Shown piece after piece: positions 2,114 to 59,110 of a stretch of DNA of 64,000 nt. The position numbers were made by a program, and so were the translations under genes. Source of the DNA: Eledone cirrhosa. Its lineage: Eukaryota. Each line of letters begins with the position of its first letter. Position 1 is the first letter of the stretch. The notes beneath the pieces are model-generated. The model saw nothing but the letters and a program-made list of their open reading frames with translations. It was not told the DNA's origin and did not search any database. The stretch spans positions 70,494,001 through 70,558,000 of the forward strand of contig OZ024746.1 in assembly GCA_964016885.1 (NCBI GenBank), written 5' to 3'.

Positions 2114-4192
2114 TCATATTTTAAAGTCTTCGGTCAAGTATGTTTGTTTGAGTGTATTTAATTGACTGTTACAAACAAAAGATTTCCCACTTATTTCACA
2201 GTGGAAAGATTTCTCACCAGTGTGTGTTAGTTTGTGTTTATTTAAGTCACTGTTACGAAGAAAAGACTTCCCACATATTTCACAGTGGCAAGATTTCTCA
2301 CCAGTGTGTGTTAGTTTGTGTTTATTTAAGTGACTGTTACGAACAAAAGATTTACCACATATTTCACAGTGGCAAGATTTCTCACCAGTGTGTGTTAGTT
2401 TGTGTTTATTTAAGTTACTGTTATGAAAAAAAGACTTCCCACATATTTCACAGTGAAAAGATCGCTCATCAGAGTGTGTTACTTTGTGTCTATTTAATTC
2501 ACTGTTACGAACAAAAGATTTACCACATATTTCACAGTGGAAAGGTCTCTCACCAGTGTGTGTTAGTTTGTGTCTATTTAAGCTACTCTTACAAACAAAA
2601 GATTTACGACATATTTCACAGTGGAAAGGTGTCTCACCAGTGTGTGTTAGTTTGTGACTAGTTAATTCACTTTTACAAACAAAAGATTTTCCACATGTTT
2701 CACAATAATATGGCTTCTCTCTAGTGTGTCTTCTCATGTGTACTATTAAATAACCATTATTCCCAAAGGATTTCCCACATATTTCACAATGGTGGGGTTT
2801 TTCTCCAGTGTGTGTTTGTTTGTGTGCTGCTAGACTGTTTTGAACAAAAGACTTCCCACATATTTCACAGTGGAAAGGTCTCTCTCCGGTGTGTGTTCTT
2901 GTGTGAATTGTTAACTCACTGTTAGAGGCAAAAGATTTTCCACATATTTCACAGTGGAAAGATTTCTCACCAGTGTGTGTTAGTTTGTGTCTATTTAAGC
3001 TACTGTTTTGAAGAAAAGACGTGCCGCATATTTCACAGTGGAAAGATTTCTCAGCAGTGTGTGTTAGTTTGTGTCTATTTAAGCCACTGTAATGAAAAAA
3101 AGACTTGCCACATATTTCACAGTGGAAAGATCTCTCACCAGTGTGTGTTAGTTTGTGTCTATTTAAGTCACAGTTACGAACAAAAGACTTCCCACATATT
3201 TCACAATGAAAAGGTCTCACACCAGTGTGTGTTAGTTTGTGTATATATAAGCTACTGTTTTGAAAAGACTTGCCACATGTTTCACAGTGGAAAGATCTCT
3301 CACCAGTGTGTGTTAGTTTGTGTCTATTTAACTCACAGTTACGAACAAAAGACTTCCCACATATTTCACAATGATATGGCTTTTCTCCAGTATGTCTTCT
3401 CATGTGTGCTATTAAATAACCATTAGTCAAAAAGGATTTCCCACATATTTTACAATGGTAGGGTTTTTCTCCAGTATGTGTTTGTTTGTGAACTACTAAA
3501 TAACTGTTACAAAGAAAAGACTTCCCACATATTTCACAGTGGAAAGATTTTTCACCAGTGTGTGTTAGTTTGTGTATATTTAAGTGACTGTTAAGAAGAA
3601 AAGACTTCCCACATATTTCACAGTGGAAAGATCTCTCCCCAGTGTGTGTTAGTTTGTGGCTATTTAAGTGACTGTTACAAACAAAAGATTTACCACATAT
3701 TTCACAATGAAAAGGTTTCTCTCCAGTGTGTGTTCTTGTGTGAATTGTTAACTTACTGTTAGAGGCAAAAGATTTTCCACATATTTCACAATGAAAAGGT
3801 CTCTCGCCAGTGTGGGTTCTTTTGTGGACTGTTAAATGGCTGTTAGTCACAAAAGAATTACCACATGTTTCACAATGAAATGTTCTCTCTTCAGTGTGTC
3901 TACGAATGTGTTCAACAAGGTCAGATGTGTAAGGGGAAGATTTCCCACGTATTTCACAGGACAACTGTTTTTCTATTGTGTGTGTGTCTTTGTGTGTGGA
4001 TACTTCATCTTTTGTAGAGAAAGTTTTCCTACAAATCTCACAGCTGTATTCTGGAATATTCCTGTGTAAAGTTCCTTCTTCTGTACATATTTCACGCGAT
4101 AAAGGTTTCTCATCACTGTATGTCTGTGTAACTGTATCTATATTGGTGGAAACTGGTGTGTTACAAATGTTCAATTGTTTAACGTCCTCCAT
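2114..4192 (-). CDS. Poly-C2H2 zinc-finger protein, copy 1 (692 aa; ~21 complete fingers, 2 degenerate)
   Basis: Tandem CxxC-x12-HxxxH repeats with TGEKPF/TGERSF linkers in an uninterrupted ORF; no KRAB/SCAN/SET domain recognisable in the ORF. Confidence 0.92.
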   Translation of the reverse strand: MEDVKQLNICNTPVSTNIDTVTQTYSDEKPLSREICTEEGTLHRNIPEYSCEICRKTFSTKDEVSTHKDTHTIEKQLSCEIRGKSSPYTSDLVEHIRRHTEERTFHCETCGNSFVTNSHLTVHKRTHTGERPFHCEICGKSFASNSKLTIHTRTHTGEKPFHCEICGKSFVCNSHLNSHKLTHTGERSFHCEICGKSFLLNSHLNIHKLTHTGEKSFHCEICGKSFLCNSYLVVHKQTHTGEKPYHCKICGKSFLTNGYLIAHMRRHTGEKPYHCEICGKSFVRNCELNRHKLTHTGERSFHCETCGKSFQNSSLYIHKLTHTGVRPFHCEICGKSFVRNCDLNRHKLTHTGERSFHCEICGKSFFHYSGLNRHKLTHTAEKSFHCEICGTSFLQNSSLNRHKLTHTGEKSFHCEICGKSFASNSELTIHTRTHTGERPFHCEICGKSFVQNSLAAHKQTHTGEKPHHCEICGKSFGNNGYLIVHMRRHTREKPYYCETCGKSFVCKSELTSHKLTHTGETPFHCEICRKSFVCKSSLNRHKLTHTGERPFHCEICGKSFVRNSELNRHKVTHSDERSFHCEICGKSFFHNSNLNKHKLTHTGEKSCHCEICGKSFVRNSHLNKHKLTHTGEKSCHCEICGKSFLRNSDLNKHKLTHTGEKSFHCEISGKSFVCNSQLNTLKQTYLTEDFKI

Positions 4193-5271
4193 AGTATTTT
4201 TTTAAGAATTCTTGAAAGTTGAGAAATATCTGTGATTATGTTTTATTATTCTTCAATTTCTCGTAGCAAAGTGATTCCTCTCGAAGTGCTACATATATAT
4301 TATTGTAAACAAAAAGACTTCAAATTCAATGTTAGGAAATTTGGTTATGGTTAATGCATGCTATGTAGTCTAAAATATATATTGTCTATAAATGACTGGT
4401 AGCCGATGTTCTGGTAAAATAGACGTTCTTCCACTAGATTGTAATGGAACTCTCGGTTGACACAACTGTAAAGTAAGAATAGATATGACAGTGTAAGACA
4501 GATGTTGGGGAAAGAAAATGTGTTGTATGTATATATATTTGTGGTGAGATGGCGATCGGTATGATCATGTTTATTTCTCTCTGTTGACCTAATAAAATAA
4601 GTTTGTTTATCACGGAGTGTAGAAAAGTACACAATATCTGCTGTGTTGACAAGAAAGCTAATTGTTGGTGATTTAAACCTATTTCTTTCAGTCCTTTAAA
4701 TAGTAGAATAACCAATTGATGAGGTAGTGTAGTTTCTGATGAAATGAAATATGTAATCATGTAGATGCTGGAACACCGATCCTGAAACATGTAGATCACC
4801 ATATATTTACCACAAAATAGTAACATCCAACTTAACATTGGATAATTACTGGACAAATTATAATAATATCAATTAAAGTTATAATTAATATGAAAGGTAG
4901 CCGGTGACGTTGTTGATGCTTCACTATCCTGAAAGACATCGGTGTTATACGTTAAAACTCCCTGACATAATGTAATACCTTCAATTATGTTAGTATCCAA
5001 CTCGTGGTAAAGGAAGCAACAGCCATTAAAATGATTGCGATGCAGCAACGAGGTACTCTCTTACCTTGTTGCTTATCCTGCTATGAATAGCAGCCAAATC
5101 GCCCTCTTCACGTCTTGATCAACAGCAAGACATACATATACACACACACATATATGTATAGAAATTTCGTATTTGGAAAGAAATACGATTTTAGAAGGCC
5201 GTAGCTATGCGAACAACAGGGTGGGGGGACCTAAAACCCTCTGGTGTTGTCCAGCAGAAGCAAGGGGGGAC

Positions 5272-5317
5272 AACCGTCTATGCATTTCAGGCTTGACTGG
5301 CCATCGTCAGGACGATC
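5272..5317 (-). ncRNA. Minimal type I hammerhead ribozyme (unit 1, copy a)
   Basis: Minus strand gATCGTC-CTGACGA-tGGCcagtcaaGCCt-GAAA-tgca-TA-GACGGTt: 6-bp stem I, intact core, stem II GGC/GCC, palindromic ATGCAT stem III, AUA cleavage triplet. Confidence 0.8.
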
Positions 5318-5423
5318 CCTCCCACTGCACTATTATAAGTTGAGCCAAATTATGCAGCTTCATATGCAAATGAGATTAATCACCTCATGTTTTCAAATGC
5401 AGCAGTCGCAGAGCAGTGGGAGG

Positions 5424-5471
5424 GATCGTCCTGACGATGGCCAGTCAAGCCTGAAATGCATAGAGACGGTT
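5424..5471 (+). ncRNA. Minimal type I hammerhead ribozyme (unit 1, copy b; 2-nt insertion in stem I)
   Basis: gatcgtc-CTGACGA-tggccagtcaagcct-GAAA-tgca-TA-gagacggtt; predicted cleavage after 5462. Confidence 0.7.
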
Positions 5472-5750
5472 GTCCCCCTTGCTTCTGCTGGACAACACCA
5501 GAGGGCGGTCGCTCCCCGGTGTCCGCATAGCTTCGGCTTCCTAAAATCGTATTTTTTTCGAAATACGAAATTTTTATATATATTGTATAAAGCAATGCTT
5601 GAAGTGGAATCCTATTTCTTTTCTATTATAAGTTGAGTCAACTTATGCAGCGTCATATGCAAATGAGATTAAACACCTCATTTACACGGACGAGAAAACT
5701 ATATGTTCTCGGCTGTTTTCAAGTCCAGCAGTCGCAGAGCAGTGGGAGGG

Positions 5751-5795
5751 ATAGTCCTGACGATGGCCAGTCATGCCTGAAATGCATAGACAGTT
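5751..5795 (+). ncRNA. Minimal type I hammerhead ribozyme (unit 1, copy c)
   Basis: atagtc-CTGACGA-tggccagtcatgcct-GAAA-tgca-TA-gacagtt; predicted cleavage after 5788. Confidence 0.7.
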
Positions 5796-5819
5796 ATCCC
5801 CCTTGCTTCTGATGGACAA

Positions 5820-6960
5820 AACCATACCAACGTAGTCTTCTCTCAAGTAAACAGTATCTGATCCCTCTTATTCCTAATTTCTCACTTAGTTCATTTATGT
5901 TTTGCCGTTTCCGTATATTAGTATTACACATCCATCGGAGTCTGCATGCTTCGTTCCTCTCCAGTCTGCGCAGCTCCTCTGCACACAATGCCCATGTCTC
6001 ACTGACATGTAACATTGCTGTTCGTATACAAGCATCATACAATCTGCCTTTCATTTTTAGAGAGAAACCTTTAGTGGCCAATAGTGGTATAAGCTCTCTG
6101 AACTTTTTCCATCCCGTTCTAACTCTGGCTACTGTACTATTAGAGCACCCTCCACCACTGCTTATTTTGTCACCCAGGTAACGGAAAGTGTCCACTATTT
6201 CTATAGAACCATCTGGGCAATAGAAAGAGCTAATATCCTGTGGGCACTTGCGACTTATTGCACCTGAGCAGCGGTCACATAAAATTTACGTTCTTGGATA
6301 GCTTACCTGTGATCCCACTACATCTTTTATGTACCCATAGTTTGAATTTGGGACATAAAATGGAATTTCTGCATACTCCTTTCCTACACACTGAACATGG
6401 CCATTTCCCAGAGGGCACCTTTTCCCCCGTTTTCCTTTCTACATACTAGAACTTTAGTCTTAGACAAGTTAACTTTAAGGCCTTTTAATTCTAGGCCATG
6501 CTTCCATGTTTGGAATTTCTTCTCTAGTTCAGCCATCGATTCAGCTATGATAGTTATATCATCTGTATATAGAAGTTCCCATGGGCAGCCAGACTTGAAC
6601 TCATCTGTTATAGCCTGGAGGGCAATAATAAATACCTGACACAAACCCAAACTGCATTTCATCTCGATCAATTCGCTCTCTGATTAGTTGTGCTTTAACT
6701 CTTTCTGTAACCTTCATGACCTGGTCAACTAACTTAATGCCTCTATAGTTTCCCCTATCTAGGGCATCTCCTTTACCTTTGTAGCAGTTAATGATGCTGC
6801 TGCTACACCAGTCATTTGGTATGACCCCATTCTGTATTACTAGGTTTACTATCCGGGTGACTATAGTATGTCCCACCATTCCAGATGCTTTCAACATCTC
6901 AGTAACTATCTCCGAAGGTCCAGCTGCCTTGCCTGTCTTCATATCTTTGATTGCCTTACA
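5820..6960 (-). mobile_element. RTE-clade LINE fragment, internally deleted RT region (unit 1)
   Basis: Broken ORFs encode KTGKAAGPSEIVTEMLKA..NYRGIKL..EMQFGF, PWELLYTDD (RT YxDD), and [22 protein letters not shown]. Confidence 0.88.
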
Positions 6961-9890: not shown

Positions 9891-11100
9891 TGGTATATTT
9901 CTTTAGGTTGTTTTGGAAGCCTCAACGATGCAGATGGGTAAATCTCCGGGTAACAAGATCCGGTGGTGGAGAGAGAGATGTAAGTGAATATAGGTTGAGA
10001 TGTGTAGTGTGTAGAAGAATGTAGGAAAGAGCGTAAAGGATAAAAATAATTGTTTCTTATTTTGGCACATGGCAAGCAATTATCCCAGTGTATTACTGGT
10101 ACTTTATTTTATCGACCCCATAAGGATGAAAGGCAAAGTTAACCTCGGCGGGATTTGAACTCAGATTGGATAGGGCCGTAACTCTATAATAATAACAAGA
10201 GATAGAGTTACCTTGTGAGAGATTTAATTGTCCCTATATATTTCGGATTCACATCCATCAACTGAAAGGGGTTTTCCGGGGGAGGAAAGGTTCTCTGTTG
10301 GAAAGGTACGAAACATGTCCTCCGCTGTTCGTTGTTTTGAATATCTGAAATGGGGTCAGTCAAGCAGAGGTCGGCGGCCGAAATAAATAACCGATCCGAG
10401 AGAAGTGAAATGAGGTGGTTGGTTTAAGTAAACAAACGATGCAGCAACACACACACACACAAGCGAGACAGCAACACACACACACACACAGTAGCATTCC
10501 CCCATACGAACATACTACACTGCTAATACAGACGAACGAGGCAACAACACAGGCGCACGTACACTCAAGTGAGACAACAACAACACAGTAACGTTCACCA
10601 AACAGGCAGAGAATACTATCACAACCACACACTATTCAACAGGGCAGATAATACAATGGACTGACAGCTAACATCACCCCACTCCCACAATTGAAAGAAC
10701 TATTTCGGCCGCCGACCTCTGCTTGACCGACCCCATTTCACGCGCACGCGCGCTCTGCTGAATACCTCAGGTATTCAAAACAACAAACAGTGGAGGACAC
10801 GTTTCTCACCTTTCCACCCCCTGGAACCCCCCCCCCCAGTTGATGGATGTGAATATACAGGGACAATTAAATCTCTCCCAAGGTAACTCTATCTCGTGTT
10901 ATTATTTTTATCCTTTACGCTCTTTCCTACATTCTTCTACACACTACACATCTCAACCTACATTCACTTACATCTCTCTCTCCACCACCGGTTCTTGTTA
11001 CCCAGAGATTTACCCATCTGCATTGTTGAGGCTTCCAAAACGACCTAAAGAAATATACCTTATTATTCCACAATGCTTCAAGCAAACTTCAATACTCTCT
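9891..11100. repeat. Inverted repeat with ~350-400-bp arms; left arm interrupted by a SINE fragment (~10051-10190)
   Basis: 9891-10050 plus 10190-10385 is the reverse complement of 10701-11065. Confidence 0.8.
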
Positions 11101-11119
11101 TATATATATATATATATGT

Positions 11120-12712
11120 GTGCGTGCGTGTGTGTATGACAACACTACTTACAGCCACTTGGCACATAACGCTATTACCCCTAAATATAAGAAGGCTAAC
11201 CCTATGGCCTACCACAACGTCAATACTGAAGCCAAAGACCTTGCTGCTGCCCTAAAGGTAGATAAGAAGCTTCAATGTTTAGCTAAGCGTGAAGCGCTTC
11301 TCACCCTGAAGGATGACAAGGTAGACTTTGCTTCCAATCCCACATGTAGACTACTATACCTGGCACGCACACAAATGGGACTAGTCAGTAAGGCTATACT
11401 TAGAAACATAGTTAAGATCATTAGGACCAAGTCCAACCTGTCCGAGTGGGAAAACAGCCACTCAGTCATTAAGTGGTTTAACTCCTTCAACTCAAAAATA
11501 GCGAAGTTCACGCAATTCGATTTATTGTAGATTTATACCTGTCGATCTCAGAGACCCTATTAAACAAAGCGTTGGACTTTGCTACCCCTTACACTACCGT
11601 CCATGTTTTAGACAGGGAGATCATCGCACATTGCCGGAAAACCCTCCTCTTCAACAATGGAGTAGCCTGGGCAAAGAAGTCAACCACTTCAGAACTATTC
11701 GACATCTCCATTGGATCGTTTGACAGTGCTGACATATGCGACTTGGTTGGCCTATTCTTTTAGACATATTACGTGTTAGATTCCCGGACTTCCACACGGG
11801 AATATACCGCACCAATGGCCTGACCTTATTGAGCCAAAAAAGACTTAACTTCTAGCTTTAATGAGTTAGGACTTAGGATAACAATAGCTACCAACCTCTC
11901 TAGCGTAGATTTCTTAGACATTAATTTAGACCTTAGCACACATACCTTCAGACCCTTCCATAAGTTAAACGAAAAACTTAATTACATACACAAGAACTCA
12001 TGACACGCTCCTGCTGTTTTTAGAAATTCCGTAAATAATATCAGTACTAGAATCTCTAACCTCTCCTCTAATATAGCTATCTTTGACAGAGTGGCACCCT
12101 ACTATAACACGGTGTTAACTAACAGCAGCTTCGCGCAATCAATTATTTACTCCCCCACTAACAACAACAGCAATAAGAAAAGAAATCGTAACAATAGACA
12201 AACTATCTGGTTCTCTCCTCCCTTCTCACTCAACGTTAAGACTAAGCTAGGGAAAATTTTTTTAGCCCTCTTAGATAAACACTTTCCCATAGGACACAAA
12301 TACCGCTGAAGGCCCACATCACCAACAGTCCTAAGAGCGACACCCCACCATGATGCTCTTGCCGAAAGCCTGAAGCTTGTCCCATTCAACAGCAATGCAA
12401 CACACCTGCTGTTGTTTATGAAGCTGTGGTCACTTCGAACTGACCAAATCCTATGTGGGTATGGCGGAGGGCCGATTTAAGGAACGCTTCCTGAACCAGC
12501 AGTCGACCATTAGGTACCTGCACAAACGATCAGCCACAAAACTCGCGAGCCTCGTACTATCCCTCAAGAACTCAGGCATAGACTACTCCATTCAATGGAA
12601 AGCCATCACTAAGTCCAAGCCATACGCTAAGGGCAATCTGTCGTGTGGACTGTGTATTGAAGAAAGGATAAATATTCTAAGGAGATTACACAATAGCGTA
12701 ATTAGAGAATAA
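11120..12712 (+). mobile_element. Degenerate Penelope-like element (Naiad-like RT + C-terminal GIY-YIG), unit 1
   Basis: Fragmented ORFs: TLKDDK..PTCRL, FTQFD, FDISIGSFDSADICDLVGLF, IWFSPPFS, linker CSCRKPEACPIQQQC, VVYEA..YVGMAE..FKER, CGLCIEE. Confidence 0.85.
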
Positions 12713-17852: not shown

Positions 17853-18511
17853 AGCATTTCTTGAAGAATTCTTGAAAGTTGAGAAATATCTGTGATTATA
17901 TTTTATTATTCTTCAATTTCTCGTAGCAAAGTAATTCCTCTCGAAATGCTGCCTATATATTATTGTAAACAAAAAGACTTCAAATTCAATGTTAGGAAAT
18001 TTGGTTATGGTTAATGCATGCTATGTAGTCTAAAATATATATTGTCTATAAATGACTGGTAGCCGATATTCTGGTAAAATAGACGTTCTTCCACTAGATT
18101 GTAATGGAACTCTCAGTTGACACAACTGTAAAGTAAGAATAGATATGACAGTGTAAGACAGATGTCGGGGAAAGAAAATGTGTTGTATGTATATATATTT
18201 GTGTTGAGATGGCGGTCGGTATGATCATGGGTTTATTTCTCTATGTTGACCTAATAAAATATTCAAGTCCAAGTGTAAAGTCAAGAGAGCTAAATAACAC
18301 CGGTGTTATACATTAAAAATCCCTGACATAATGTAGTACCATCAGTTATGTTAGTATCCCACACTTGGTAAAGGAAACAACACCCAGTAAAATGATTGTG
18401 ATGCATAAACGAGACAGTCTCTTACTTTGTTGCTTAACCTGCTAAGAATAGCAGCCAAATCGCCCTCTTCACGTTTTGATCAACAGAAAGACACACACAC
18501 ATATATGTATA

Positions 18512-18820
18512 TATGTATAGAAATTTCGTATTTCGAAAGAAATACGATTTTAGAAAGGCGTTGCTATGCGAATAATGGGAAGGTGGGGGCTAACGCCCTC
18601 TGGTGTTGTCCAGCAGAAGCAAGGGGGGGACAACCGTCTATGCATTTAATTCTTGACTGGCCATCGTCAGGACGATCCCTCCCACTGCTCTATTATAAGT
18701 TGAGCCAACTTATGCAGCTTCATATGCAAATGAGATTAAACACCTCATGTTTTCAAGTCCAGCAGTCAAGCCTGAAATGCATAGACAGTTGTCCCCCTTG
18801 CTTCTGATGGACAACACCAT
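18512..18820. mobile_element. Hammerhead repeat module, unit 2 (collapsed; ribozymes disrupted)
   Basis: Minus copy 18632-18677 has GAAA changed to TAAA; the single plus copy lacks CTGACGA through a deletion between CAGTC repeats. Confidence 0.75.
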
Positions 18821-19940: not shown

Positions 19941-19969
19941 TTATTATATATATATATATATATATAATA

Positions 19970-22900
19970 TATAAGATCAAAAGATGGTTAAATGAGTCCC
20001 ATATATTTTATTATGCGCATTTCAAAAAGAAATATCATCATGCAATAACATTTGTGTTTTCATCAGATAAAAGAGGAAGACATGATATGAAGGTTAAAAA
20101 CACTTGTGGATAGTGCAGTTTTAAATCAACATATGAAAAGTAGTTTTAGATTGATGTGTGATATTGGGGGGAAAAAATGTTGTGGGGGGGGGGGGTGAAA
20201 AAGAGGAGGAGATGAGAGTAAAAAGTGGAGGGGGAGGAGTATAATGAGGAAGGATGAGATAGGAGGAGAGATGTGTGATAGAGAGAGAGAGAGATAGCTT
20301 TTATAACTGAGAAAAATATATTGTTTTACATAGAGAGGTTGAAAAACCATTGGAAGATAATGTATAAATTAAAAGAATTTGAAAATTAACGAAGAGAAAA
20401 ATAATGTAAAGTTAAGGTTTGTATATTGAAGGGTTTAATAATATGTGCGATGAAAAGAAATTGTTAATATGTATTAAGAATAATATTTAAGGGTTTAATA
20501 ATATGTGCGATGGAAAGAAAATGTTAATATGTATTAAGAATAATATTTAAGGGTTTAATAATATGTGCGATGGAAAGAAAATGTTGATATATATTATTAA
20601 AAAAACAAAAGTAATGTAAGTAAGGATATATTGTGAGATGAGCATGAGTAAGTTAGATGAAAGGGAGAAAAAAATAATGAATAGAGGATGAATAATCTAA
20701 CGTCAAAAAAATGTTTATGTTTACGAAGGATTTTTTCAAGGTGATATAAAGTAAGAATATATTGTATTGTGTAATAATTGTTTCTATGTTAGGCACAGTG
20801 AGAAAAGGTACAGATTAGGGGTTAGAAATTAAAAGAAAAAGAAAAGAAAATGAAAAGGAAGAAAGGGAAGTGATAAATAGGAGTGATATAGAATGAGTAA
20901 CAAGTATTATATAATGTATAATAAATAACTTTGAAATAAGGTAGAAAGATGGGTATATTTTTAAAGAAGTATATATATATATATATGTGCCTTTGAGAAA
21001 AGGATTCTGAATTGATAAAGTTTAGGATATTAGCTGTATACTTTATGGAAAGTTCTGTGGAATTTATGCAAGCAGATAGAAAACAAGTCAGTGCGTCTAT
21101 TTATTATAGAATCTAAATTAGATATAATGGTAAATTTTTCATTTAGACAGAGATTGCAAGTCTTGGATAGAGAACTGTTCAAGTATAGAGAAGCAGAAGA
21201 AACCTTTTTCCAAGAGATGTTATATTTAATATTTTTGTCTTTCAAGGACCATATGAGTTCTGAGAGAGCCGTGTTGGTTCTTTTAAGTTGGTATTTAAAA
21301 GACGAATGATGATTATAAAGACGAGCTTTAAAGGAGGTGGAAGTGGAGCCTAAATAGGTGAAGGAATTGGTGTCAGTTATAACTTTTCATTCGTAGATTA
21401 AGTTTTTATCAAGACAATGGTTGTTGAGAGGACATTTATTTTTAGCAGGGCAATTGCAATTGCGATTAGAGAGATTATTAACGAGTGACCTAGTGTTATC
21501 TATAGAAGGAATTGGATTGGAGAAGTTATTTGCGATAGGAATAATAGTTTCTTGATTTAGAATGGGATTAAGAACATTTAGCGAAGTTGTGTTTGACGTT
21601 GTATTTGGGTTTGCAGAAATTAGCCTAGAGTTTACAATGACGTCGGGAGTACTATTACTATTATTATGATATTCAGTGTTGGAAGGAAGAGATTTAGTAT
21701 TTAGTATTTTATTGTTGTGTTTAGAGATAATGTTGGAAATATTGGAGGATGTCGAATAGGAAAATTTTATAGTGTGTTTGTTAAATATTTTACTATAGAT
21801 ATGTGAGGGAGGGAAGCATTTATTTAAGGCACTAAAGAATAATTTAGGAATATTATTATTAATAGAGATGGAGAAAGGAGCATTATACCAGATTATGTTT
21901 TTGTATCTAGGTCTTTTATTAAAGTTATTGGAATGATCATGATTAATTATTCTACTGTAAGATCTTCTAGAATTTGTTTCTTTCTTATATTTGATTTTAT
22001 CAGGATAGCCGGCTTTAGAAAGCGCGTTATTATAGTAATTGGCGTTAGCATCAAAGATGTTTTTATTAGAAGATAGGTTAGATATTCTTTTTCCAATATT
22101 ACTAACTATAGCATTCTTAATATTAGTAGGGTGGTTAGATTTAAAATTAACATAATTTAGGTTCTCATTGTTTTTATGGTAAGGGTAATATAGGCTAGAG
22201 ATTAAGAGATACATCCAAGAAATTAGCTAGTTTGATGCTGTTATCAAATTCAATTTTTAGGTTATGTTGGTTAAAGAGATTACGTATATTGTTCTTAATA
22301 ATATTAAGGTTAACTATGTTGCAATTTAAGATAGTAGAGAGTCCATCGTCACGATAAATTCCACCGCGAAGTTGAGGAATTTTCCGACTCAAAGAGTTCA
22401 AAATAAAGATACCAATTAAATCTGTCAATTGGGATGAATCGGATGCTCCCATTGTGATGTCGAAGTTGTTAGAGGTATCAGCTCTGGTCCAATATTCATT
22501 GTTGAACTCAAGGGTGGTTTTACGTGCAGTGAGAATGATGTGAAGTTCATCTGTGGTGATGTCAGAATATTTAAATGCGAAAGATAGAGCATTGTTGAGA
22601 AGTGAAGGCGAAATAGAAGAATAGTAGCTGGCAATATCAAATTGAACAAATTTTAGTTTGTTTTTATTATTCAATTTGTTGAACCAGCCAATCCCTTCAG
22701 AAGTACCAAACCATAAATTTAAGTTCAAAGAAGAGCAATTAGAACGAACCTGTGGGATAATTCTATCCAAGATGGCTTTACTAACAATCCACAAATCTGA
22801 TTTAGAGGGGGCGATTAATCTAACAGGTAGTTCAGTGCGAAAATTGTTTTTGTGATCCTTGAGATTTATCCTCGGAGTTCTTGGGAGGAATGGTTCGGTC

Positions 22901-23040
22901 TTTTTTCCGATGCCAAGTTTTGAGATAATCTCAGAGGCTTCAAGGTTTATGGATTCTAAATTATCATGGTTGGTTTTACGATATTTTTTCCTAAGTTCCT
23001 TTAGGATAAGGTTGTTATAATTATCCTTGGAAATACCATA
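19970..23040 (-). mobile_element. 5'-truncated Penelope-like element (Naiad-like), unit-2-specific insertion into (TA)n
   Basis: RT: NLKDHKNNF..VRLIAPSKS, FVQFDIASYYSSI, FDITMGASDS, GIYRDDGL, NFLDVSLNL. Linker CNCPAKNKCPLNNHC; GIY-YIG LIYE*KV..TYLGST..FKAR..CNLCLNEK. TA runs on both sides; absent in the other four units. Confidence 0.92.
20428..20595. repeat. 60-bp tandem repeat (~2.7 copies) in the PLE 3' UTR
   Basis: AAGGGTTTAATAATATGTGCGATG(A/G)AAAGAAA... recurs at 60-bp spacing. Confidence 0.9.
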
Positions 23041-23058
23041 TATATAATTATATATATA

Positions 23059-23278
23059 CTAATCGGCCCGTCCGGCTGCCCCCACCGCTCCACTGCAAAG
23101 ATACCACACACCCTCCCGTGTCACATTGTCATTCCGACTCTCTCTCTCGCTCTGAATAACTAACACTTTAATTGTATCTCTCTCTGTCTAACGGCCTATC
23201 TCACTCTTTTCCCCTCCCTCTGTTTCTCTGTCTCTCTCTGTAGTTGTATGTGTGTAGTTTTCCTAATCTTTCTATACA

Positions 23279-24575: not shown

Positions 24576-25164
24576 TATATATATATATATTATATATATA
24601 TATATTAACCCATGCTAGCGTGGAAGATGGACGTTAAAAGATGATGATGATGATGATGATTACATATAGTAATAATAATAAATTTGAAGACTAAAATCCA
24701 AAGAGGGTTCGATAAGGATAAATATATATATATCAAATATATAAGAACTCTAGAGCAAATATTTATTAAAATAACAGATTAAAGTTTAAGCCAAGAATCG
24801 CTGCTTTCACCCTTAACTGGATCTTCTGAAACTAAAAAAATCAATCTGTGAACGCAGAAGTAAATATTTCGAAAAATGTTGCAACCGAAGGAAAACATTA
24901 AGACGTTCCCTGGCAATGAACGGAAAAAAGCGTTTATCGAAATATTTACTTCTGCGTTCACAGAATGATATTTTTAGTTTCAGAAGATCCCGTTAAGGGT
25001 GAAAGCAGTGATTCTTTGCTTCAACTTTAATCTGTTATTTTAATAAATATATTACATATATTATATATAGAGAGAGATTTATATATATAAGTTTCAATCG
25101 GGGGTAACCACAGTAAGTAAGGTACTCAATACAAAGCAAAGTATAAATATTTAATATAAAAAAG

Positions 25165-25213: not shown

Positions 25214-25708
25214 TAACTTTCCAAGTAATATGGTGGTATTTATATTTTTCTTGTGGTAGGAGAGGATGGGTAGAGGTCATTGGTTGATGGGTTTAAAGAA
25301 AATGGCATTCTTTAAAAACTATATTTAGAGTAACAAAGGCAGAAAGAATTCAAACTGGGGGTGCCACTCCTGATTTTTAAGGTTCACTTAAGCTAACAAT
25401 GGCTATGGTCAGTTGTCTACAAACACACATATAAGCCCTCACTCCCTCACACTCACACAAACACACTCTCTTATACTTATATATAAATATATACATACGT
25501 ATATATATATATACATAAGAGAGTATTGAAGTTTGCTTGAAGCATTGTGGAATAATAAGGTAAATTTCTTTAAGTTGTTTGAAAGCCTCGACAATGCAGA
25601 TGGGTAAATCTCCGGGTAACAAGATACGGTGGTGGAGAGAGAGATGTAAGTGGGTGTACGTTGAGATGCGTGGCGTGTAGAAGACTGTAGCATGTAGAAG
25701 AATGTAGG

Positions 25709-26471
25709 GACCCGACCTGAAGATCAGGCCCATTGTATCGAGCATGGAAGGACCGCTCTACAAAATTTCATGGCTCCTAGCCAGAATACTCAAACCCATC
25801 TTAGACACCTTGCCGGGACACGTTAACAGCTCCGAGGAGGTGTTGAAGCGCCTGCATCAAATGGATCCCGACACCAGAAAGGATAACAGATATGCCTTCA
25901 GCCTTGATGTAGTCGCTCTCTACACCTCGGTCCCGGCACTCCCGGCCGTTAATATACTGATAGAACGCGTCCAATCCACCGACCTACACTGCTTCGGGCT
26001 CACCACCACTGACATCCACCAACTCCTATCCATCGTCATCGACAACATCTACTTCGGATTCCTTGACCAAACATACCAGCAAACCTCGGGACTGCCCATG
26101 GGATCAAGCCTGTTGGGTGTGCTAGCGATCTCTTACATGGACAGCCTCGAGCGCAAGGCACTTAACGCTTGCCACCCCAACGCCGTCGCCTTTTTCTCAA
26201 GGTACGTGGACAATATCCTCATCCTCACATCTTCCCAAGACATGGCGAACAGAATCTGAGACGTTAAACAACACGGACGAGAACATCGACTTCAGTGTTG
26301 AACACACCAACGACGACGGGTCACTTGCCCTCCTCGGCTTACGAATCAACATCACGGAACAGGGAGGGATCCACTGCAACTTCTACCGTAAGGTAGCCTG
26401 CGGGGACCTGTTCGTCCACTACAAGTCCGCCCTCCCTAACAATGCCAAAAGAGGATACATCACGAACGAGA
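25709..26471 (+). mobile_element. Penelope-like RT fragment (different PLE lineage), unit-2-specific
   Basis: ORF 25744-26259: AFSLDVVALYTSVP, YQQTSGLPMGS, FSRYVDNI; GC-rich relative to flanks. Confidence 0.85.
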
Positions 26472-26684
26472 TCGCTCTTTCCTACATTCTTCTACACACT
26501 ACACATCTCAACCTACATTCACTTACATCTCTCTCTCCACCACCGGATCTTGTTACCCGGAGATTTACCCATCTGCATTGTTGAGGCTTCCAAAACGACC
26601 TAAAGAAATATACCTTATTATTCCACAATGCTTCAAGCAAACTTCAATACTCTCTTATATATATATATATATATGTGTTTGTGT

Positions 26685-28290
26685 GTATGACAACACTACT
26701 TACAGCTACTTGGCACATAACGCTATTACCCCTAAATATAAGAAGGCTAACCCTATGGCCTACCACGACATCAATACAGAAGCCAAAGACCTTGCTGCTG
26801 CCCTTAAGGTAGATAAGATGCTTCAATGTTTAGCTAAGCGTGAAGCGTTTCTCACCCTGAAGGATGACAAGGTAGACTTTGCTTCCAATCCCACATGTAG
26901 ACTACTACACCCGGCACGCACAGAAATGGGACTAGTCAGTAAGGCTATACTAAGAAACATAGATAAGACCATTAGGACCAAGTCCAACCTGTCCTAGTGG
27001 GAAAACAGCCACTCAATCATTAAGTGGTTTAACTCCTTCAACTCCAAAAAAGCGAAGTTCACGCAATTCGACATTGTAGATTTATACCTGTCGATCTCAT
27101 AGACCCTATTAAACAAGGCGTTGGACTTTGCTACCACTTACACTACCGTCCATCTTTTAGACAGGGAGATCCTCGCACATTGCCGGAAAACCCTCCTCTT
27201 CAACAACGGAGTAGCCTGGGCAAAGAAGTCAACCACTTCAGAATTTTTCGACATCTCCATTGGATCGTTTGACAGTGCTGACATATGCGACTTGGTTGGC
27301 CTATTCTTTTAGACATATTACGTGTTAGATTCCCGGACTTCCACACGGGAATATACCGCAACGATGGCCTGACCTTATCGAGCCATTAAAGTGGTCACAA
27401 ACTGGACCAGTTTAAAACAGACTTAACTTCTACCTTTAATGAGTTAGGACTTAGGATAACAGAAGCTACCAAGCTCTCTACCGTAGATTTCTTAGACATT
27501 TATTTAGACCTTCGCACACCTACCTTCTGACCCTTCCATAAGTTACACGAAAAACTTAAATACATACACAAGAACTCATGCCACTCTCCTACTGTTTTTA
27601 GAAACTTCGTAAATAATATCAGTACTAGAATCTCTAACCTCGCCTCTAATAAAGCTATCTTTGACAGAGTGGCACCCTACTATAACACGGTGTTAACTAA
27701 CAGCGGCTTCTCGCAACCAATTATTTACTCCCCCACTAACAACAACAGCAATAAGGAAAGAAATCGTAACAATAGACAAACTATCTGGTTCTCTCCTCCC
27801 TTCTCACTCAATGTTAAAACTAATGTAGGAAAAAAATGTTTAGCCCTCTTAGATAAACACTTTCCCATAGGACACAAATACCGCTGAAGGCCCACATCAC
27901 CAACAGTCCTAAGAGCGACACCCCACCATGATGCTCTTGCAGGAAGCCTGAAGCTTGTCCCATTCAACAGCAATGCAACACACCTGCTGTAGTTTATGAA
28001 GCTGTGGTCACTTCCAACTGACCAAATCCTATGTGGGTATGGCGGAGGGCCGATTTAAGGAACGCTTCCTGAACCAGCAGTCGACCATTAGGTACCCGGA
28101 CAAACGATCAGCCACGAAACTCGCGAGCCCCGTACTGTCCCTCAAGAACTCAGGTATAGACTACTCCATTCAATGGAAAGCCATCACTAAGTCCAAGCCA
28201 TGCGCTAAGGGCAATCTGTCGTGTGGGCTGTGCATTGAAGAAAGGATAAATATTCTAAGGAGATTACACAATAGCGTAATTAGAGAATAA
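26685..28290 (+). mobile_element. Degenerate Naiad-like PLE (unit 2)
   Basis: Paralogue of 11120-12712; retains GIYRNDGL. Confidence 0.85.
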
Positions 28291-28932
28291 ATTCTGGCAA
28301 TGGAAACATCAGTTAGAATCAAGAGGACTGAGAGTGTATATAGCTAAGACAAAAGTGTTGATAAGTAGAAGAGAGGACAATACTCTGATTCCATCAGCGA
28401 AATCACCATGTTCGATATCTAGAAAAGCAACTGGCATAAATTCCATAAAATGTACGCAATGCAGATCTTGGGTACGCAAGAGATGTAGTGGGATAACAGG
28501 CAAACAAACAGGTAAGGAAAACTACGTATACTGTAGATGTACAGGGAAAATTGGCAGTAGTAATCGCAGTGATAGACACATTTTTCCAATGCAGGTGGTT
28601 CTATAGAAGTGGTTGATAGCTTCCGGTACCTAGGTGATCAGATTAGCATGGGAGGGGGGGAGGGGTCCGAGGCCTTGGTATCTAGAATAAGGACGGGTTG
28701 GAAGAAGTTTAGAGAGCTGCTTCCTCTGTTGACAAAGAAGGGTTTCTCCCTGCGTACGAAAGCACGGTTATATGATGCCTGTGTGAGATGCGCAAGCTGC
28801 ACGGTAGTGAGAAATGGGCAGCAACTGCAGAGGATATGCAACGGCTGGAGAGAAATGAAGCAAGCATGCTCCGTTGGATGTGCAATGTCAATGTGTGTGA
28901 ACGACCAAGCATAGATGAGTTGAGAAAGAAAC
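28280..28932 (+). mobile_element. RTE LINE fragment, 3' end deleted (unit 2)
   Basis: Paralogue of 12700-13350, fused directly to TGTAAACAAACAGCCC; the same junction occurs at ~42200. Confidence 0.85.
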
Positions 28933-29236: not shown

Positions 29237-31194
29237 CACTGGTCAACAAAAAAATATTCATTTCATGGTTCTGGTATAATTTAGTATGATTCTAGAGTAA
29301 TCAAGTGTGCAGAATCTGAATATGACACCGGTTAAGCTGTATTGAGTCTAGTTTTTGAGAGCCAGCATATCCATGTTTATGACCCATAGCTATGTGGCTC
29401 ATATTACTTTATCCAATTGTATCCACTATATTTAGTTGTTAACTAATTTATACTTACTGCTTTTGTTTCAGATCACAGAATTGTAACTATCCTCAGCTAT
29501 TCTTGGATAATTCACAACAACTTTGACTAGTGGGAGAGATGGAACGCCGAAAATGTTTAAATGACCCGGACCGATTTTGCTATATTTGTGGACTCTTTAC
29601 CCCAGAAAGCATAAAGAAACCAATCACAAAAGCAGTTCGAGTAAACTACAAATGCTACTTCAAATGTCCATTAGGAGACCAGGACAAGAAATGGGCGCCT
29701 CATATAGCATGTAGATCATGTGTTAATCACCTAAGTGAATGGAAGAATGGGAAACGAAGCTCTGGTTTGCCATTTGCCGTACCAATGGTGTGGCGAGAAC
29801 CAAAAGACCACAATAACGATTGCTACTTCTGCCATATAAACATCCAAGGAATAACTGTGAAGACACGAACTACACTTCAATACCCGATATCTCGTCAGCA
29901 CTCCTACCAGTACCTCACAGTGATGAATTACCTGTTCCAGTTCCACCTGCTGATTCTGATTCCAGTAGCACCTCTATTGATGATGACTATCAAGACGAAC
30001 ATGAGACAAGTGAACCCATACCATTTAACCAGGAAGCTCTTCATGATCTCATTAAAGACCTACATTTGTCTAAAGAAAAGGCAGAGCTCCTGGGATCAAG
30101 ACTGAAGCAACGAAACCTGCTGGAACCTGGCGTCCGCATTACAACCGCTCGTCATCGTCATAAACCACTTAATTAGTCTACTTCTAGGTCTTCAGACTGG
30201 TTACACAAAGCATATGTGTTTTCTATGTTTATGGAATAGTAGAGCAGATGCAGAGCACATGAAGAAGGATTGGCCAACAAGACCAAAGGATGCACCCGGT
30301 AGATTCAACTGTCTGTACAAACCTCTCGTGGATCCAGAAAAAGTATTCCTCCCTCCATTACATCTCAAATTAGGCTTGGCCAAAAACTTTATTAAAAGCA
30401 TGGATCATACAGGTAATGGGTTTCAGTACTTGTGTAAGAAATTGGGTAGAGTGGTATCTGAAGCAAAGTTAAAAGCAGGGGTTTTGAATGGTCCTCAGAT
30501 TCGTATGCTGGTTAATGATAGTGAGTTTACGAAAACACTAAACCCTTTGGAGACTAATGCATGGAAATCATTTGTAGATGTGACACAGAACTTTCTTGGA
30601 AACCACCGTGCAGAAAACTATAAAGAAATTGTTGAAACCATGATATAAAATTATCGCGCTCTGGGTTCACGAATGTCGTTGAAGCTTCATTTCTTCCATT
30701 CTCATCTGGATTTCTTCCCAAGTAATCTAGGAGACATCAGTAATGAACATGGAGAGAGGTTTCACCAGGACATTGCCAAAATGGAGAGTAGGTATCAGGG
30801 TCGGTTCAATCCCACCATGATGGACACTGCAACATGAGGAGAGCCAGCAAAACAAGCGTAAAAGCAAAATCCAGACATTTTTTTAGAAATGTTTTGAAAT
30901 ATTTTATTATGTTCAGAATGTTGTTCAGAATGTTTTGTTAATATACTAAGTGTTAAAGTAAATAAATAAAAATATGTTTATATATTTTTTATTAATAAGT
31001 TAATATGTTTATATCTAAGTCATCATATGTTACACAATGGATAAATAATGCAATAAGAGGAACATGTTTTCGATCTCATATTAAGGCATTCTGGTCCGAT
31101 AGCAAAAAATGAATATCAAAACTGAATTTAGTGCTATGAAATTAGTAAGATGCACATATTCACATGTAAGAACCATTTTGGCTGTTGACCAGTG
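29237..31194 (+). mobile_element. Chapaev3-type (CMC superfamily) DNA transposon, defective
   Basis: TIRs CACTGGTCAACA / TGTTGACCAGTG; TTA duplicated on both sides versus empty site AAATTATTAATG in other units. Transposase motifs CYICG..GDQDKKWAPHIAC..PMVWREPKDH.NDCYFC, LPPLHLKLGL, GPQIR, EHGERFHQDI; frameshift, stops and an internal deletion. Confidence 0.88.
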
Positions 31195-35549: not shown

Positions 35550-36143
35550 ATATGTATAGAAATTTTGTATTTCGAAAGAAATACGATCTTAGAAAGGTGT
35601 TGCTATGCGAACAACGGTATATGGGGGCTAACGCCCTCTAGTGTTGTCCAGTAGAATCAAGGAGTACAGCCGTCTATGCATTTCAGGCTTGACTGGCCAT
35701 CGTCAGGACGATCCCTCCCACTGCTCTATTATAAGTTGAGCCGACTTATGCAGCTTCATATGCAAATGAGATTAATCGCCTCATGTTTTCAAGTCCAGCA
35801 GTCAAGCCTGAAATGCATATAGACGGTTGTCAACCTGCTTTTGCTGGACAACACCAGATGGCGTTAGATAACCTGTGTTCGCATAGCTACGGCTTCCTAA
35901 AATCGTATTTCTTTCGAAATACGAAATTTCTATATATATTGTATAAAGCAATGCTTGAAGTGGAATCCTATTTCTTTGCAAATGAGATTAATCACCTCAT
36001 TTACACGGACGAGAAAACTATATGTTCTCGGCTGTTTTCAAGTCCAGCAGTTGCAGAGCAGTGGGAAGGATAGTCCTGACGAAGGCCAGTCAAGCCTGAA
36101 CTGCATAGACGGTTGTCCCCCTTGCTTCTGATGGACAACACCA
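35550..36143. mobile_element. Hammerhead repeat module, unit 3
   Basis: Paralogue of 5153-5822; copy b core deleted; copy c (36070-36114) has GAAA changed to GAAC. Confidence 0.78.
35668..35713 (-). ncRNA. Minimal type I hammerhead ribozyme (unit 3, copy a, intact)
   Basis: Minus strand gatcgtc-CTGACGA-tggccagtcaagcct-GAAA-tgca-TA-gacggct. Confidence 0.78.
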
Positions 36144-39523: not shown

Positions 39524-40109
39524 AGAGAGTAATGAAGTTTGCTTGAAGCATTGTGGAATAATAAGGTAAATTTCTTTAAGTCGTTTGGAAGCCTCGACAA
39601 TGCAGATGGGTAAATCTCCGGGTAACAAGATCCGGTGGTGGAGAGAGAGAACAATTGAAAGAACTATTTCGGCCGCCGACCTCTGCTTGATCGACTCCAT
39701 TTCAAGCGCACGCGTGCTCTGCTGAATACCTCAGATATTCAAAACAACGAACAGCAGAGGACACGTTTCGCACCTTTCCGACAAACAACCTTTCCACCCC
39801 CCCAGAACACACCCCAATTGATGGATGTGAATCCGAAATATATAGGGACAATTATAATCTCTCCCAAGGCAACTCTATCTCGTGTTATTATTTTTATCCT
39901 TTACGCTCTTTCCTACATTCTTCTACACACTACACATCTCAACCTACATTCACTTACATCTCTCTCTCCACCACCGGATCTTGTTACCCGGAGATTTACC
40001 CATCTGCATTGTTGAGGCTTCCAAAACGGCCTAAAGAAATATACCTTATTATTCCACAATGCTTCAAGCAAACTTCAATAATCTCTTATATATATATATA
40101 TATGTGTGT

Positions 40110-41560
40110 GTGTATGACAACACTACTTACAGCTACTTGGCACATAACGCTGTTACCCCTAAATATAAGACTACTATACCCGGCACGCACAGAAATGGGA
40201 CTAGTCAGTAAGGCTATACTTAGAAACATAGTTAAGACCATTAGGACCAAGTCCAACCTGTCCCAGTGGGAAAACAGCCACTCAGTCATTAAGTGGTTTT
40301 ACTCCTTCAACTCCAAAAAAGCGAAGTTCACGCAATTCGACATTGTAGATTTATACCTGTCGATCTCATAGACCCTATTAAACAAGGCATTGGACTTTGC
40401 TATCACTTACACTACCGTCCATCTTTTAGACAGGGAGATCCTCGCACATTGCCGGAAAACCCTCCTCTTCAACAACGGAGTAGCCTGGGCAAAGAAGTCA
40501 ACCACTTCACAACTTTTCGACGTCTCCATTGGATTGTTTGACAGTGCTGACATATGCGACTTGGTTGGCCTATTCATTTTAGACATATTACGTGTTAGAT
40601 TCCCGGACTTCCACACGGGAATATACCGCATCAATGGCCTGACCTTATTGAGCCATTAAAGTGGTCACAAACTGGACCAGTTTAAAACAGACTTAACTTC
40701 TACCTTTAATGAGTTAGGACTTAGGATAACAGTAGTTACCAACCTCTCTAGCATAGATTTCTTAGACATTTATTTAGACCTTCGCACACCTACCTTCTGA
40801 CCCTTCCATAAGTTACACGAAAAACTTAATTACATACACAAGGACTCATGCCACCCCCCTACTGTTTTTAGAAACTTCGTAAATAATATCAGTACTAGAA
40901 TCTCTAACCTCTCCTCTAATAAAGCTATCTTTGACAGAGTGGCACCCTACTATAACACGGTGTTAATTAACAGCGGCTTCTCGCAACCAATTATTTACTC
41001 CCCCACTAACAACAACAGCAATAAGAAAAGAAATCGTAACAATAGACAAACTATCTGGTTCTCTCCTCCCTTCTCACTCAACGTTAAAACTAATGTAGGA
41101 AAAAAATGTTTAGCCCTCTTAGATAAACACTTTCCCATAGGACACAAATACCACTGAAGGCCCACATCACCAACAGTCCTAAGAGCGACACCTCACCATG
41201 ATGCTCTTGCAGGAAGCCTGAAGCTTGTCCCATTCAACAGCAATGCAACACACCTGCTGTAGTTTATAAAGCTGTGGTCACTTCCAACTGCCCAAATCCT
41301 ATGTGGGTTTGGCGGAGGACCGATTTAAGGAACGCTTCCTGAACCATCAGTCGACCATTAGGTACCCGGACAAACGATCAGCCACGAAACTCGCGAGCCC
41401 CGTACTGTCCCTCAAGAACTCAGGTATAGACTACTCCATTCAATGGAAAGCCATCACTAAGTCCAAGCCATACGCTAAGGGCAATCTGTCGTGTGGACTG
41501 TGCATTGAAGAAAGGATAAATATTCTAAGGAGATTACACAATAGCGTAATTAGAGAATAA
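40110..41560 (+). mobile_element. Degenerate Naiad-like PLE (unit 3)
   Basis: Paralogue of 11120-12712 with a deletion near 40168. Confidence 0.85.
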
Positions 41561-46957: not shown

Positions 46958-47590
46958 ATATGTATAGAAATTTCGTATTTCGAAAGAAATACGATTTTAG
47001 AAAGGCGTTGCTATGCGAACAACGGTATATGGGGGCTAACGCCCTCTAGTGTTGTCCAGTAGAATCTGGGGGTACAGCCGTCTATGCATTTCAGTCTTGA
47101 CTGACCATCGTCAGGACGATCCCTCCCACTGCTCTATTATAAGTTGAGCCGACTTATGCAGCTTCATATACAAATGAGATTAATCACCTCATGTTTTCAA
47201 GTCCAGCATTCAAGCCTGAAATGCATATAGACGGTTGTCCCCCCTGCTTTTGCTGGACAACACCAGAGAGCGTTAGATAACCTGTGTTCGCATAGCTACG
47301 GCTTCCTAAAATTGTATTTCTTTCGAAATACGAAATTTCTATATATATTGTATAAAGCAATGCTTGAAGTGGAATCCTATTTCTTTTCTATTATAAGTTG
47401 AGTCAACTAATGCAGCGTCATACGCAAATGAGATTAATCACCTCATTTCCACGAACGAGAAAACTATATGTTCTCGGCTGTTTTCAAGTCCAGCAGTCGC
47501 AGAGCAGTCGGCAGGATAGTCCTGACGAAGGCCAGTCAAACCTGAAATGCATAGACGGTTGTCCCCCTTGCTTCTGATGGACAACACCAT
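46958..47590. mobile_element. Hammerhead repeat module, unit 4
   Basis: Copy a 47076-47121 (-) has core intact but stem II altered; copy b core deleted; copy c 47516-47560 (+) intact. Confidence 0.78.
47516..47560 (+). ncRNA. Minimal type I hammerhead ribozyme (unit 4, copy c)
   Basis: atagtc-CTGACGA-AGGccagtcaaaCCT-GAAA-tgca-TA-gacggtt. Confidence 0.7.
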
Positions 47591-58439: not shown

Positions 58440-59110
58440 ATATGTATAGAAATTTCGTATTTCGAAAGAAATACGATTTTAGAAAGCGTAGTTGTGCGAA
58501 TAACAAGGGGTGGGGGCTAACGCCCTCTAGTGTTGTCCAGCAGAAGCAAGGGGGACAACCCTCTAAGCATTTCAGGCTTGACTGGCCATCTTCAGGACGA
58601 ATCCTCCCACTGTTCTATTATAAGTTGAGCCAACATATGCAGCTTCATATGCAAATGAGATTAATCACCTCATGTTTTCAAGTGCAGCAGTAGCAAAGCA
58701 GTGGGAGGGATCGTCCTGACGATGGCCAGTCAAGCCTGAAATGCATATAGGCGCTTGGCCCCTTGCTTCTGCTGGACAACACCAGAGGGCGGTAGCTCCA
58801 CGGTGTCCGCATAGCTTCGGCTTCCTAAATTCGTATTTCTTTCGAAATACGAAATTTCTATATATATTGTATAAAACAATGCTTGAAGTGGAATCCTATT
58901 TCTTTTCTATTATAACTTGAGTCAACTTATGCAGCGTCATATGCAAATGCGATTAAACACCCTCATTTACACGGACGAGAAAACTATATGTTCTCGGCTG
59001 TTTTCAAGTCCAGCAGTCGCAGAGCAGTGGGAAGGATAGTCCTGACGAAGGCCAGTCAAACCTGAAATGCATAGACGGTTGTCCCCCTTGCTTCTGATGG
59101 ACAACACCAT
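58440..59110. mobile_element. Hammerhead repeat module, unit 5 (all three copies present)
   Basis: Copy a ~58558-58602 (-) CTGAAGA with stem I/III substitutions; copy b ~58709-58755 (+); copy c 59036-59080 (+) intact. Confidence 0.78.
59036..59080 (+). ncRNA. Minimal type I hammerhead ribozyme (unit 5, copy c)
   Basis: atagtc-CTGACGA-AGGccagtcaaaCCT-GAAA-tgca-TA-gacggtt. Confidence 0.7.

Follow-up and report, generated by a model that had tools for sequence, protein, structure and literature searches.

The module upstream of the zinc-finger (ZNF) gene very probably derives from a single old insertion of a 326-nt retrozyme, likely made by the enzymes of a Penelope-like element (PLE) at a TA microsatellite, which was then copied passively and decayed during the duplications of the ZNF unit. 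It is a real feature of a known kind and a passive passenger of the ZNF duplication. The retrozyme family is dispersed in the genome and has a repeat anatomy with two fixed 3′ ends, TA targets and inversions; in the array, its copies are co-duplicated with the genes and decayed. Self-cleavage of the family is predicted, probably as dimers via the palindrome ATGCAT. A 326-nt circle or a ZNF-cutting role is unlikely for the array loci. PLE mobilisation of animal retrozymes has so far been argued from co-occurrence and homology; here, a PLE signature was found at the insertion ends of more than 100 loci.

Anatomy of the module

The window is the whole 64,000-nt stretch of DNA that was analysed. 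The C2H2 zinc-finger ORF of its first unit lies at 2114..4192 on the minus strand (19 fingers by pattern count). As the earlier note had claimed, the module is situated upstream of this gene, 960-1632 nt from the ATG at 4192. It starts beside a TA/CA microsatellite (5133..5152), the likely insertion target, with an inverted, 5′-truncated retrozyme arm (5152..5331, minus strand), whose end next to the TA/CA run is the family's site 1, the first of its fixed 3′ ends. The direct arm (5330..5824, plus strand) comprises about 1.5 laps of the 326-nt monomer and has a short internal deletion near 5388. The module is thus a 180-bp inverted repeat (5152-5331 / 5410-5583) plus an extra half lap. One monomer, from cut site to cut site, occupies 5463..5788 (plus strand, 326 nt) and contains no ORF, as had been claimed. 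Within it, a "tail" of about 40 nt (5584..5622, plus strand) lies between the two sites at which dispersed copies preferentially end on their 3′ side, and reverse transcription probably starts at these two sites.

The right end of the direct arm (5824) adjoins a truncated and broken LINE fragment (5822..6950, minus strand), which is duplicated with every unit. We take this fragment to be RTE-like from its motifs; it had no Pfam match. The right end is at monomer position 37, at neither of the two main 3′-end sites. A third, minor 3′ end might follow an AC-rich stretch, at monomer position 37-39 (window 5824; loci L018, L054, L074, L084, L148 and L014), and six of the 191 dispersed segments in the unbiased sample end at monomer position 34-42.

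Hammerhead motifs

The three hammerhead motifs were found at the coordinates and on the strands given in the earlier note, one on the minus strand and two on the plus strand. All share one layout: a 6-bp stem I, CUGACGA, a 4-bp stem II with a 7-nt loop, GAAA, the palindromic stem III ATGCAT that had been described, and A as H17. Motif a (5273..5316, minus strand) has an intact core with C3 at 5310, all six pairs of stem I, and a predicted cut after 5279. In motif b (5425..5470, plus strand), the core is intact in unit 1 and the predicted cut follows 5462. Two extra bases are present directly past this cut; therefore, stem I of unit 1 cannot close in register. Motif c (5751..5794, plus strand) has an intact core, an A-A mismatch in stem I and a predicted cut after 5788. 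The cut sites 5462 and 5788 and their spacing of 326 nt agree with the earlier prediction. The assignment to the "minimal" type I class does not hold, because helices I, II and III of 6, 4 and 2 bp correspond to the "canonical" class of metazoan type I hammerheads, as distinguished from the "minimal" one in the relevant part of PMC4209133.

The type I hammerhead core (CUGANGA / GAAA / UH, helices I-III, helix I open) is present, and 115 of 141 family copies retain it. Rfam hammerhead models gave no match at E≤10 in 5050-5900, where only two chance matches were returned; this reflects the coverage of the library and not the structure. Thus, the identification of the hammerheads rests on core sequence and covariation. 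An Rfam scan of the whole window gave 197 matches, and the 150 listed were miRNA or snoRNA models on simple repeats or hairpins. The MFE folds of single motifs were no better than those of shuffled sequences (z -0.3 to -1.0), which is expected of small hammerheads. Motifs a, b and c all have U-U at the base of stem II. An axolotl ribozyme with U-U at this position, HHR_Amex2, is described as weak alone and better as a dimer (PMC7229834).

A dispersed retrozyme family

A search of the animal's own genome (3.0 Gb) revealed 2,847 candidate family copies. The core pattern had 1,281 exact matches genome-wide and the reversed-pattern control had none; therefore, the motif is not a product of chance. 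These matches are core-intact motifs. Among exact 35-mers counted genome-wide, 72 had U and 131 had A at position 10.1. The window copies belong to the U-U subfamily (named for the base of stem II), which spread by itself.

A sister retrozyme family of about 330-335 nt (loci L170-L197) has G-C at the base of stem II. The loci of this family that were inspected likewise had tandem, inverted and microsatellite anatomy. Between the two families, five of 12 pairs were changed on both sides (two in stem I and three in stem II), while the core was unchanged and helix III was invariant. The pairing test used 47 of 134 distinct copies plus motif a of the window, about one per locus, which gave 46 distinct rows. 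In these rows, 91.3% of the cells were paired, compared with 85.5% after shuffling (0/500 shuffles) and 20-40% in slid alignments. The five two-sided changes were reached by 38 of 500 shuffles and represent five events between two families, not 79.

Most copies are short dispersed inserts, with a median of 255 nt and a maximum of 605 nt in the unbiased sample (788 nt in a sample selected for dimers). Long arrays of the retrozyme were not seen in the mapped loci. The retrozyme also recurs at steps of about 60 kb in two other segmental arrays (G000 C1:143.3-143.8 Mb and C12:16.96-17.48 Mb), with 7 and 9 of the listed matches, respectively; these are further cases of passive co-duplication. Hammerheads of other families were noticed at L195:2186 (minus strand) and L117:3157 (plus strand), one with a classic GUCC/GGAC stem II and one with stem III ATGATCAT.

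Insertion ends and the RNA template

We selected 110 loci by patterns that lie immediately before the 3′ end (61 + 822 matches), without requiring the ribozyme. They were drawn from the listed matches, and overlapping duplicates and array copies were excluded. The 3′ ends of their 191 segments were concentrated at two sites about 40 nt apart: 84 were near monomer position 121 and 74 near position 160 (158 of 191). A (TA)4+ run was present within 40 nt after 121 of these 158 ends, compared with 81 of 910 background windows. Head-to-head inversions with variable junctions were observed in 69 of the 110 loci. Among the 44 inverted pairs with both ends typed, 40 had the tail on one arm only.

A tail and an inversion are the signature of PLE insertions (PMC8557442, PMC3846280), and two internal starts of reverse transcription account for it (PMC11167929). 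The two 3′ ends, the inverted 5′-truncated arm and the microsatellite target all suggest that the retrozyme is a PLE-mobilised element. These figures bear out the idea, put forward in the earlier note, of a retrozyme family that is non-autonomous, has no ORF and is linked with PLEs.

The cut site was crossed by 116 of the 123 segments reaching it, seven segments passed the second cut site, and 52 of 191 segments were longer than one lap. Given this read-through of the cut site, either uncut RNA or a circle was the likely template, and cut linear monomers were not usual. Both circular RNA and uncut multimers fit these segments. In the PLE studied in PMC11167929, unprocessed RNA was the main substrate. 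Arms of one insertion shared rare alleles at 3.2 and 5.1 per 1000 sites, compared with 0.9 between loci, and this sharing was 3.5-5.5 times that of same-subfamily copies elsewhere. Of 398 diagnostic sites, only 327 were concordant between tandem laps, and some loci seem to be chimaeric; this makes one circle less likely as the template in such cases.

At first, 5′ ends seemed to accumulate at the cut site, but part of this signal was caused by the mapping reference; after correction, seven of 123 segments stopped within 10 nt, compared with about 14 expected. No significant footprint of a cleaved template was found among the 123 segments, four of which start 1-2 bases past the cut. A hard stop before the second cut site (0/44) disappeared in the larger sample, where seven segments pass it.

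The insertion upstream of the ZNF gene probably proceeded as follows. The RT-endonuclease of a PLE would have nicked (TA)n DNA upstream of one zinc-finger gene. Reverse transcription would have begun internally, either about 121 or about 160 nt past the ribozyme cut, and copying would have continued through the cut site on an RNA that was circular or an uncut multimer. The other arm would have been added in inverted orientation. Tandem duplication of the whole gene unit then copied the insertion, which decayed. The occurrence of three ribozymes on opposite strands would follow from this geometry of insertion.

We tentatively consider a narrower version, circle-templated Penelope retrotransposition, in which the PLE enzyme binds retrozyme circles, primes at about 121 or 160 and copies across the ligation junction; it is possible, with the odds somewhat against it. 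If it is true, the mobilisation step so far hypothesised for animal retrozymes would be readable from insertion ends and could be rebuilt in vitro with a 326-nt RNA. To test circles versus uncut multimers as the template, the family provides a short RNA together with two start sites and a target.

Penelope-like elements in the genome

A PLE-type family with hammerheads of its own and TA targets had 55,962 candidates genome-wide. Two full-length pLTR-ORF-pLTR copies were found (L166 and L167), with open frames of 808-816 aa and a tail of 92 nt. The full-length ORF had no match in Pfam or PDB, and its look-alikes in the Atlas carry GIY-YIG, RVT_1 or HTH_animal. We take it to be a PLE from its motifs, the flanking hammerheads and these look-alikes.

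Among PLE families, only this one was studied in detail, and it has no homology with the retrozyme: its hammerhead is different, its tail is of another length, and the only common terminal sequence is a short AT-rich likeness at the first 3′ end (one family compared). For lack of homology and because of the 92-nt tail, it is not named as the driver of the retrozyme. The retrozyme itself has no ORF with RT and GIY-YIG between pLTRs, and no homologous autonomous element was found. The parental PLE envisaged in the earlier note was not recovered by genome search or by tblastn of the flanks of family loci, which gave scattered PLE fragments only, none placed so that the monomer could be its pLTR.

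Other elements were observed in the window. A broken PLE-type element of the same 55,962-candidate family (19960-23100, minus strand) ends in (TA)n and is present within the array in unit 2 only; it has its own type I hammerhead at 20066, with the stem III palindrome ATGCGCAT. Older, broken PLE-type fragments are duplicated with the units (11030-12700, 26440-28300, 39691-40371 and 51057-52800, plus strand). A second RT fragment at 25708-26584 (plus strand) had a weak RVT_1 match. The broken frame pair at 29527-30648 (plus strand), without a Pfam match, is presumably transposase-like. Long near-perfect inverted repeats at 24791-25017 and 50439-50581 resemble MITE hairpins, and a plant miRNA model scored below threshold on them.

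Recurrence and decay in the ZNF array

The earlier note placed the module in all five units of the window. A remnant is indeed present in each unit, but all three cores occur only in units 1 and 5. A 39-nt deletion removed the CUGACGA of motif b in units 2-4, and unit 2 additionally lost one whole lap. In unit 2 (18511..18819), motif a is broken in the GAAA core and stem II, and the single plus copy has the 39-nt deletion. In unit 3 (35550..36143), motif a is near intact, b is deleted and the core of c is mutated. Unit 4 (46958..47589) has a stem II mismatch in a, a deleted b and a mismatched c. Unit 5 (58440..59109) retains three cores, with a mismatched in stems I and III and a 2-nt insertion in b.

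The whole array consists of eight ZNF genes and nine modules, from about -41 kb to +59 kb of the window start. Motif b is defective in all eight units that hold it (a 2-nt insertion at the cut in seven, the 39-nt deletion in three). All seven copies of motif c have a stem I mismatch, and two of their cores are broken. Motif a is near intact in five of the nine modules, damaged in three and absent in one, and the ZNF frames are long and open in the units where it is damaged or absent. The ZNF frame of unit 4 (43915-46234, minus strand) is broken near the N-terminus into a 92-aa and then a 695-aa frame; the other seven are not. A second, independent insertion of the family, from the A-U subfamily, was noticed inside the array, where it occupies the same interval in two duplicated copies (G000 C6, window-relative -16735 to -16149 and -833 to -460).

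Compared with the majority of units, motif a differed at 13 of 352 sites (3.7%) in eight units, and its core alone at one of 96 sites. Divergence among array units was 2.0-3.1% for dead repeats, 1.5-5.0% for upstream DNA and 5/1543 (0.3%) for the N-terminal coding region of the ZNF genes. Nothing in the array pointed to selection acting on the ribozyme, and one core change in 96 sites is too few to argue against weak constraint. Purifying selection and retention beside the gene, as expected of a domesticated host ribozyme, were not found in these units.

The duplicated unit is 7-16 kb long, and every copy of it again carries LINE and PLE fragments. Elsewhere in the genome, there are at least 150 related ZNF genes. 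At 34 loci, representing 27 distinct paralogous ZNF genes, homology of the upstream block stops at about 5128-5160. The retrozyme is absent from the matching place in all 34, one of which has a 30-nt match on the far, downstream side. A TA run occupies the matching place in nine of 13 paralogous loci inspected (four being close duplicates) and appears to be the empty target. The unit was duplicated entire, 27 paralogues lack the module, and motif a decayed like dead repeats (3.7% versus 2-3%); therefore, the link with the ZNF genes is passive. The earlier note had considered such hitch-hiking equally possible, and it is this alternative that agrees with the data.

A splice-donor-like site, AAG/GTAAGA (5060..5065, minus strand; junction 5065/5064), lies about 90 nt from the module and is kept in all five window units and many paralogues. 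An acceptor-like CACAG is present at 4234-4230, about 38 nt before the ATG. The donor-like site probably ends a non-coding 5′ exon of the ZNF gene. If this exon is the first, the ZNF start site is on the gene side of the module, an arrangement that the earlier note had held to be contrary to its own proposal. Being about 90 nt from the probable 5′ exon, the module may have a side effect on ZNF expression.

Predicted folding and RNA products

For an RNA that covers the module, whichever strand is transcribed, folding predicts a duplex of about 180 bp between the arms and probabilities of 0.0 for the hammerhead helices. The suggested cutting of read-through ZNF RNA by motif a is not favoured by these folds, as a is predicted to be masked by the antisense of b. 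In a transcript starting inside the spacer, most pairs of the motif a helices are predicted at a probability of 0.2-0.4. The double-hammerhead fold of array b+c is 12.6-13.0 kcal/mol above the best fold (12.6 in unit 1), and the difference rises to 153 when the inverted arm is included; among dispersed tandems it is 1.6-1.7 kcal/mol above the best fold in two intact ones and 8.6 in a third. With b defective in 8/8 units, c mismatched in 7/7 and the b+c dimer fold disfavoured, the 326-nt circle proposed for these loci is not supported. The proposal of an RNA antisense to the ZNF locus fares no better: there is no overlap between the monomer and the ZNF ORF, and the RNA would therefore not be antisense to the coding mRNA.

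Newt satellite 2 provided a lead on the promoter. An snRNA-type promoter was considered for the module from the octamer ATGCAAAT at 5364 and 5657. The upstream regions of the host U1/U2 genes did not support it: none of the ten examined had the octamer within 320 nt upstream, and the best monomer matches were 10-12 of 16. The U1/U2 genes (L319-L360) share upstream motifs near -58 (TCAGT-) and -250 (-CCTCCCTT-like). Promoters of satellite 2 type with snRNA promoter elements are described in newt (PMC2220036).

Alternative explanations

Control of ZNF transcripts by motif a, or by the fold-back or promoter activity of the module, kept during amplification, seems very unlikely to us. Motif a is sense to the ZNF gene, about 90 nt from the conserved donor-like site, and is present in eight of nine modules (near intact in five) with 1/96 core changes, but its damage in three units and absence from one left long, open ZNF frames, and its divergence of 3.7% is not below that of dead repeats. 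The module is absent from the 27 paralogues. The helix probabilities of 0.2-0.4 for most pairs hold for a spacer-started transcript, whereas read-through RNA is predicted to have the whole of motif a paired with the antisense of b. Still less credible, and highly improbable, is that array copies are active sources of a linear or circular 326-nt RNA antisense to the ZNF locus. The indels in every b and the stem I mismatch in every c, the dimer fold lying above the best one by 12.6-13.0 kcal/mol (by 153 once the inverted arm is included), and the lack of overlap between monomer and ZNF ORF all speak against it, even if units 1 and 5 have kept the cores of b and c at a distance of 326 nt, the U-U subfamily has spread, and the U-U base of helix II has an active precedent in axolotl (PMC7229834).

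The repeat could also be a 5′-truncated pLTR stump of an autonomous PLE instead of a self-standing retrozyme. Its ends, inversions and targets match PLE insertions, most PLE copies are 5′-truncated (PMC8557442), and Xenopus retrozymes match pLTRs (bioRxiv 10.64898/2026.07.22.740005). A stump should continue on its 5′ side into an ORF, yet the continuation here is another 326-nt lap (52/191 segments exceed one lap), and the PLE fragments scattered in the flanks of family loci do not place the monomer as a pLTR; we regard this explanation as unlikely. Any repeat inside a duplicated gene unit will look "co-amplified". The regulatory reading does not hold up, and under the explanation that we prefer, a PLE-mediated insertion copied passively, the remaining interest is the clean PLE footprint of the family.

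Comparison with known systems

Among the systems compared, EN+ PLEs (PMC8557442, PMC3846280, PMC11167929, PMC4209133) share with the retrozyme its partial tandems, head-to-head inverted 5′-truncated arm and microsatellite targets, as well as an optional 30-40 nt tail on one arm and internal 3′ ends downstream of the hammerhead. Unlike them, the retrozyme has no ORF, RT or GIY-YIG, and no homologous autonomous partner was found in the genome.

PMC7229834 proposed that PLEs mobilise retrozymes, and Li et al. 2026 (bioRxiv 10.64898/2026.07.22.740005) described retrozymes as non-autonomous PLE derivatives, from co-occurrence in vertebrates and pLTR homology in Xenopus. Like those retrozymes and the non-autonomous MRC1 of Chlamys (PMC8557442), the present family has a proposed dependence on PLEs, with abundant PLEs alongside. 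It differs from those of Li et al. in that the basis is an insertion footprint, without pLTR homology and in an invertebrate; their argument does not appear to involve mapping of insertion ends. Hammerheads in a squid genome were noted in PMC6962438. The literature search, which did not extend to Repbase, Dfam, subscription journals or preprint supplements (any of which may hold the family), revealed no octopus retrozyme and no mapping of retrozyme tails or inversions.

The closest counterparts are the metazoan non-LTR retrozymes of coral, mussel and axolotl (Cervera and de la Pena 2020, PMC7229834), which are ORF-less head-to-tail repeats of 150-450 nt (326 here). Both are low in GC, occur in thousands of copies, and have a palindromic helix III and a single canonical type I hammerhead in every unit, and the window copies share the U-U at the base of helix II with axolotl HHR_Amex2. 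Compared with what is described there, the family consists mostly of short dispersed inserts that include an inverted arm and have their 3′ ends fixed at two sites. It nevertheless appears to have each feature of non-LTR retrozymes that can be read from DNA, namely an ORF-less unit, one hammerhead per unit and a high copy number.
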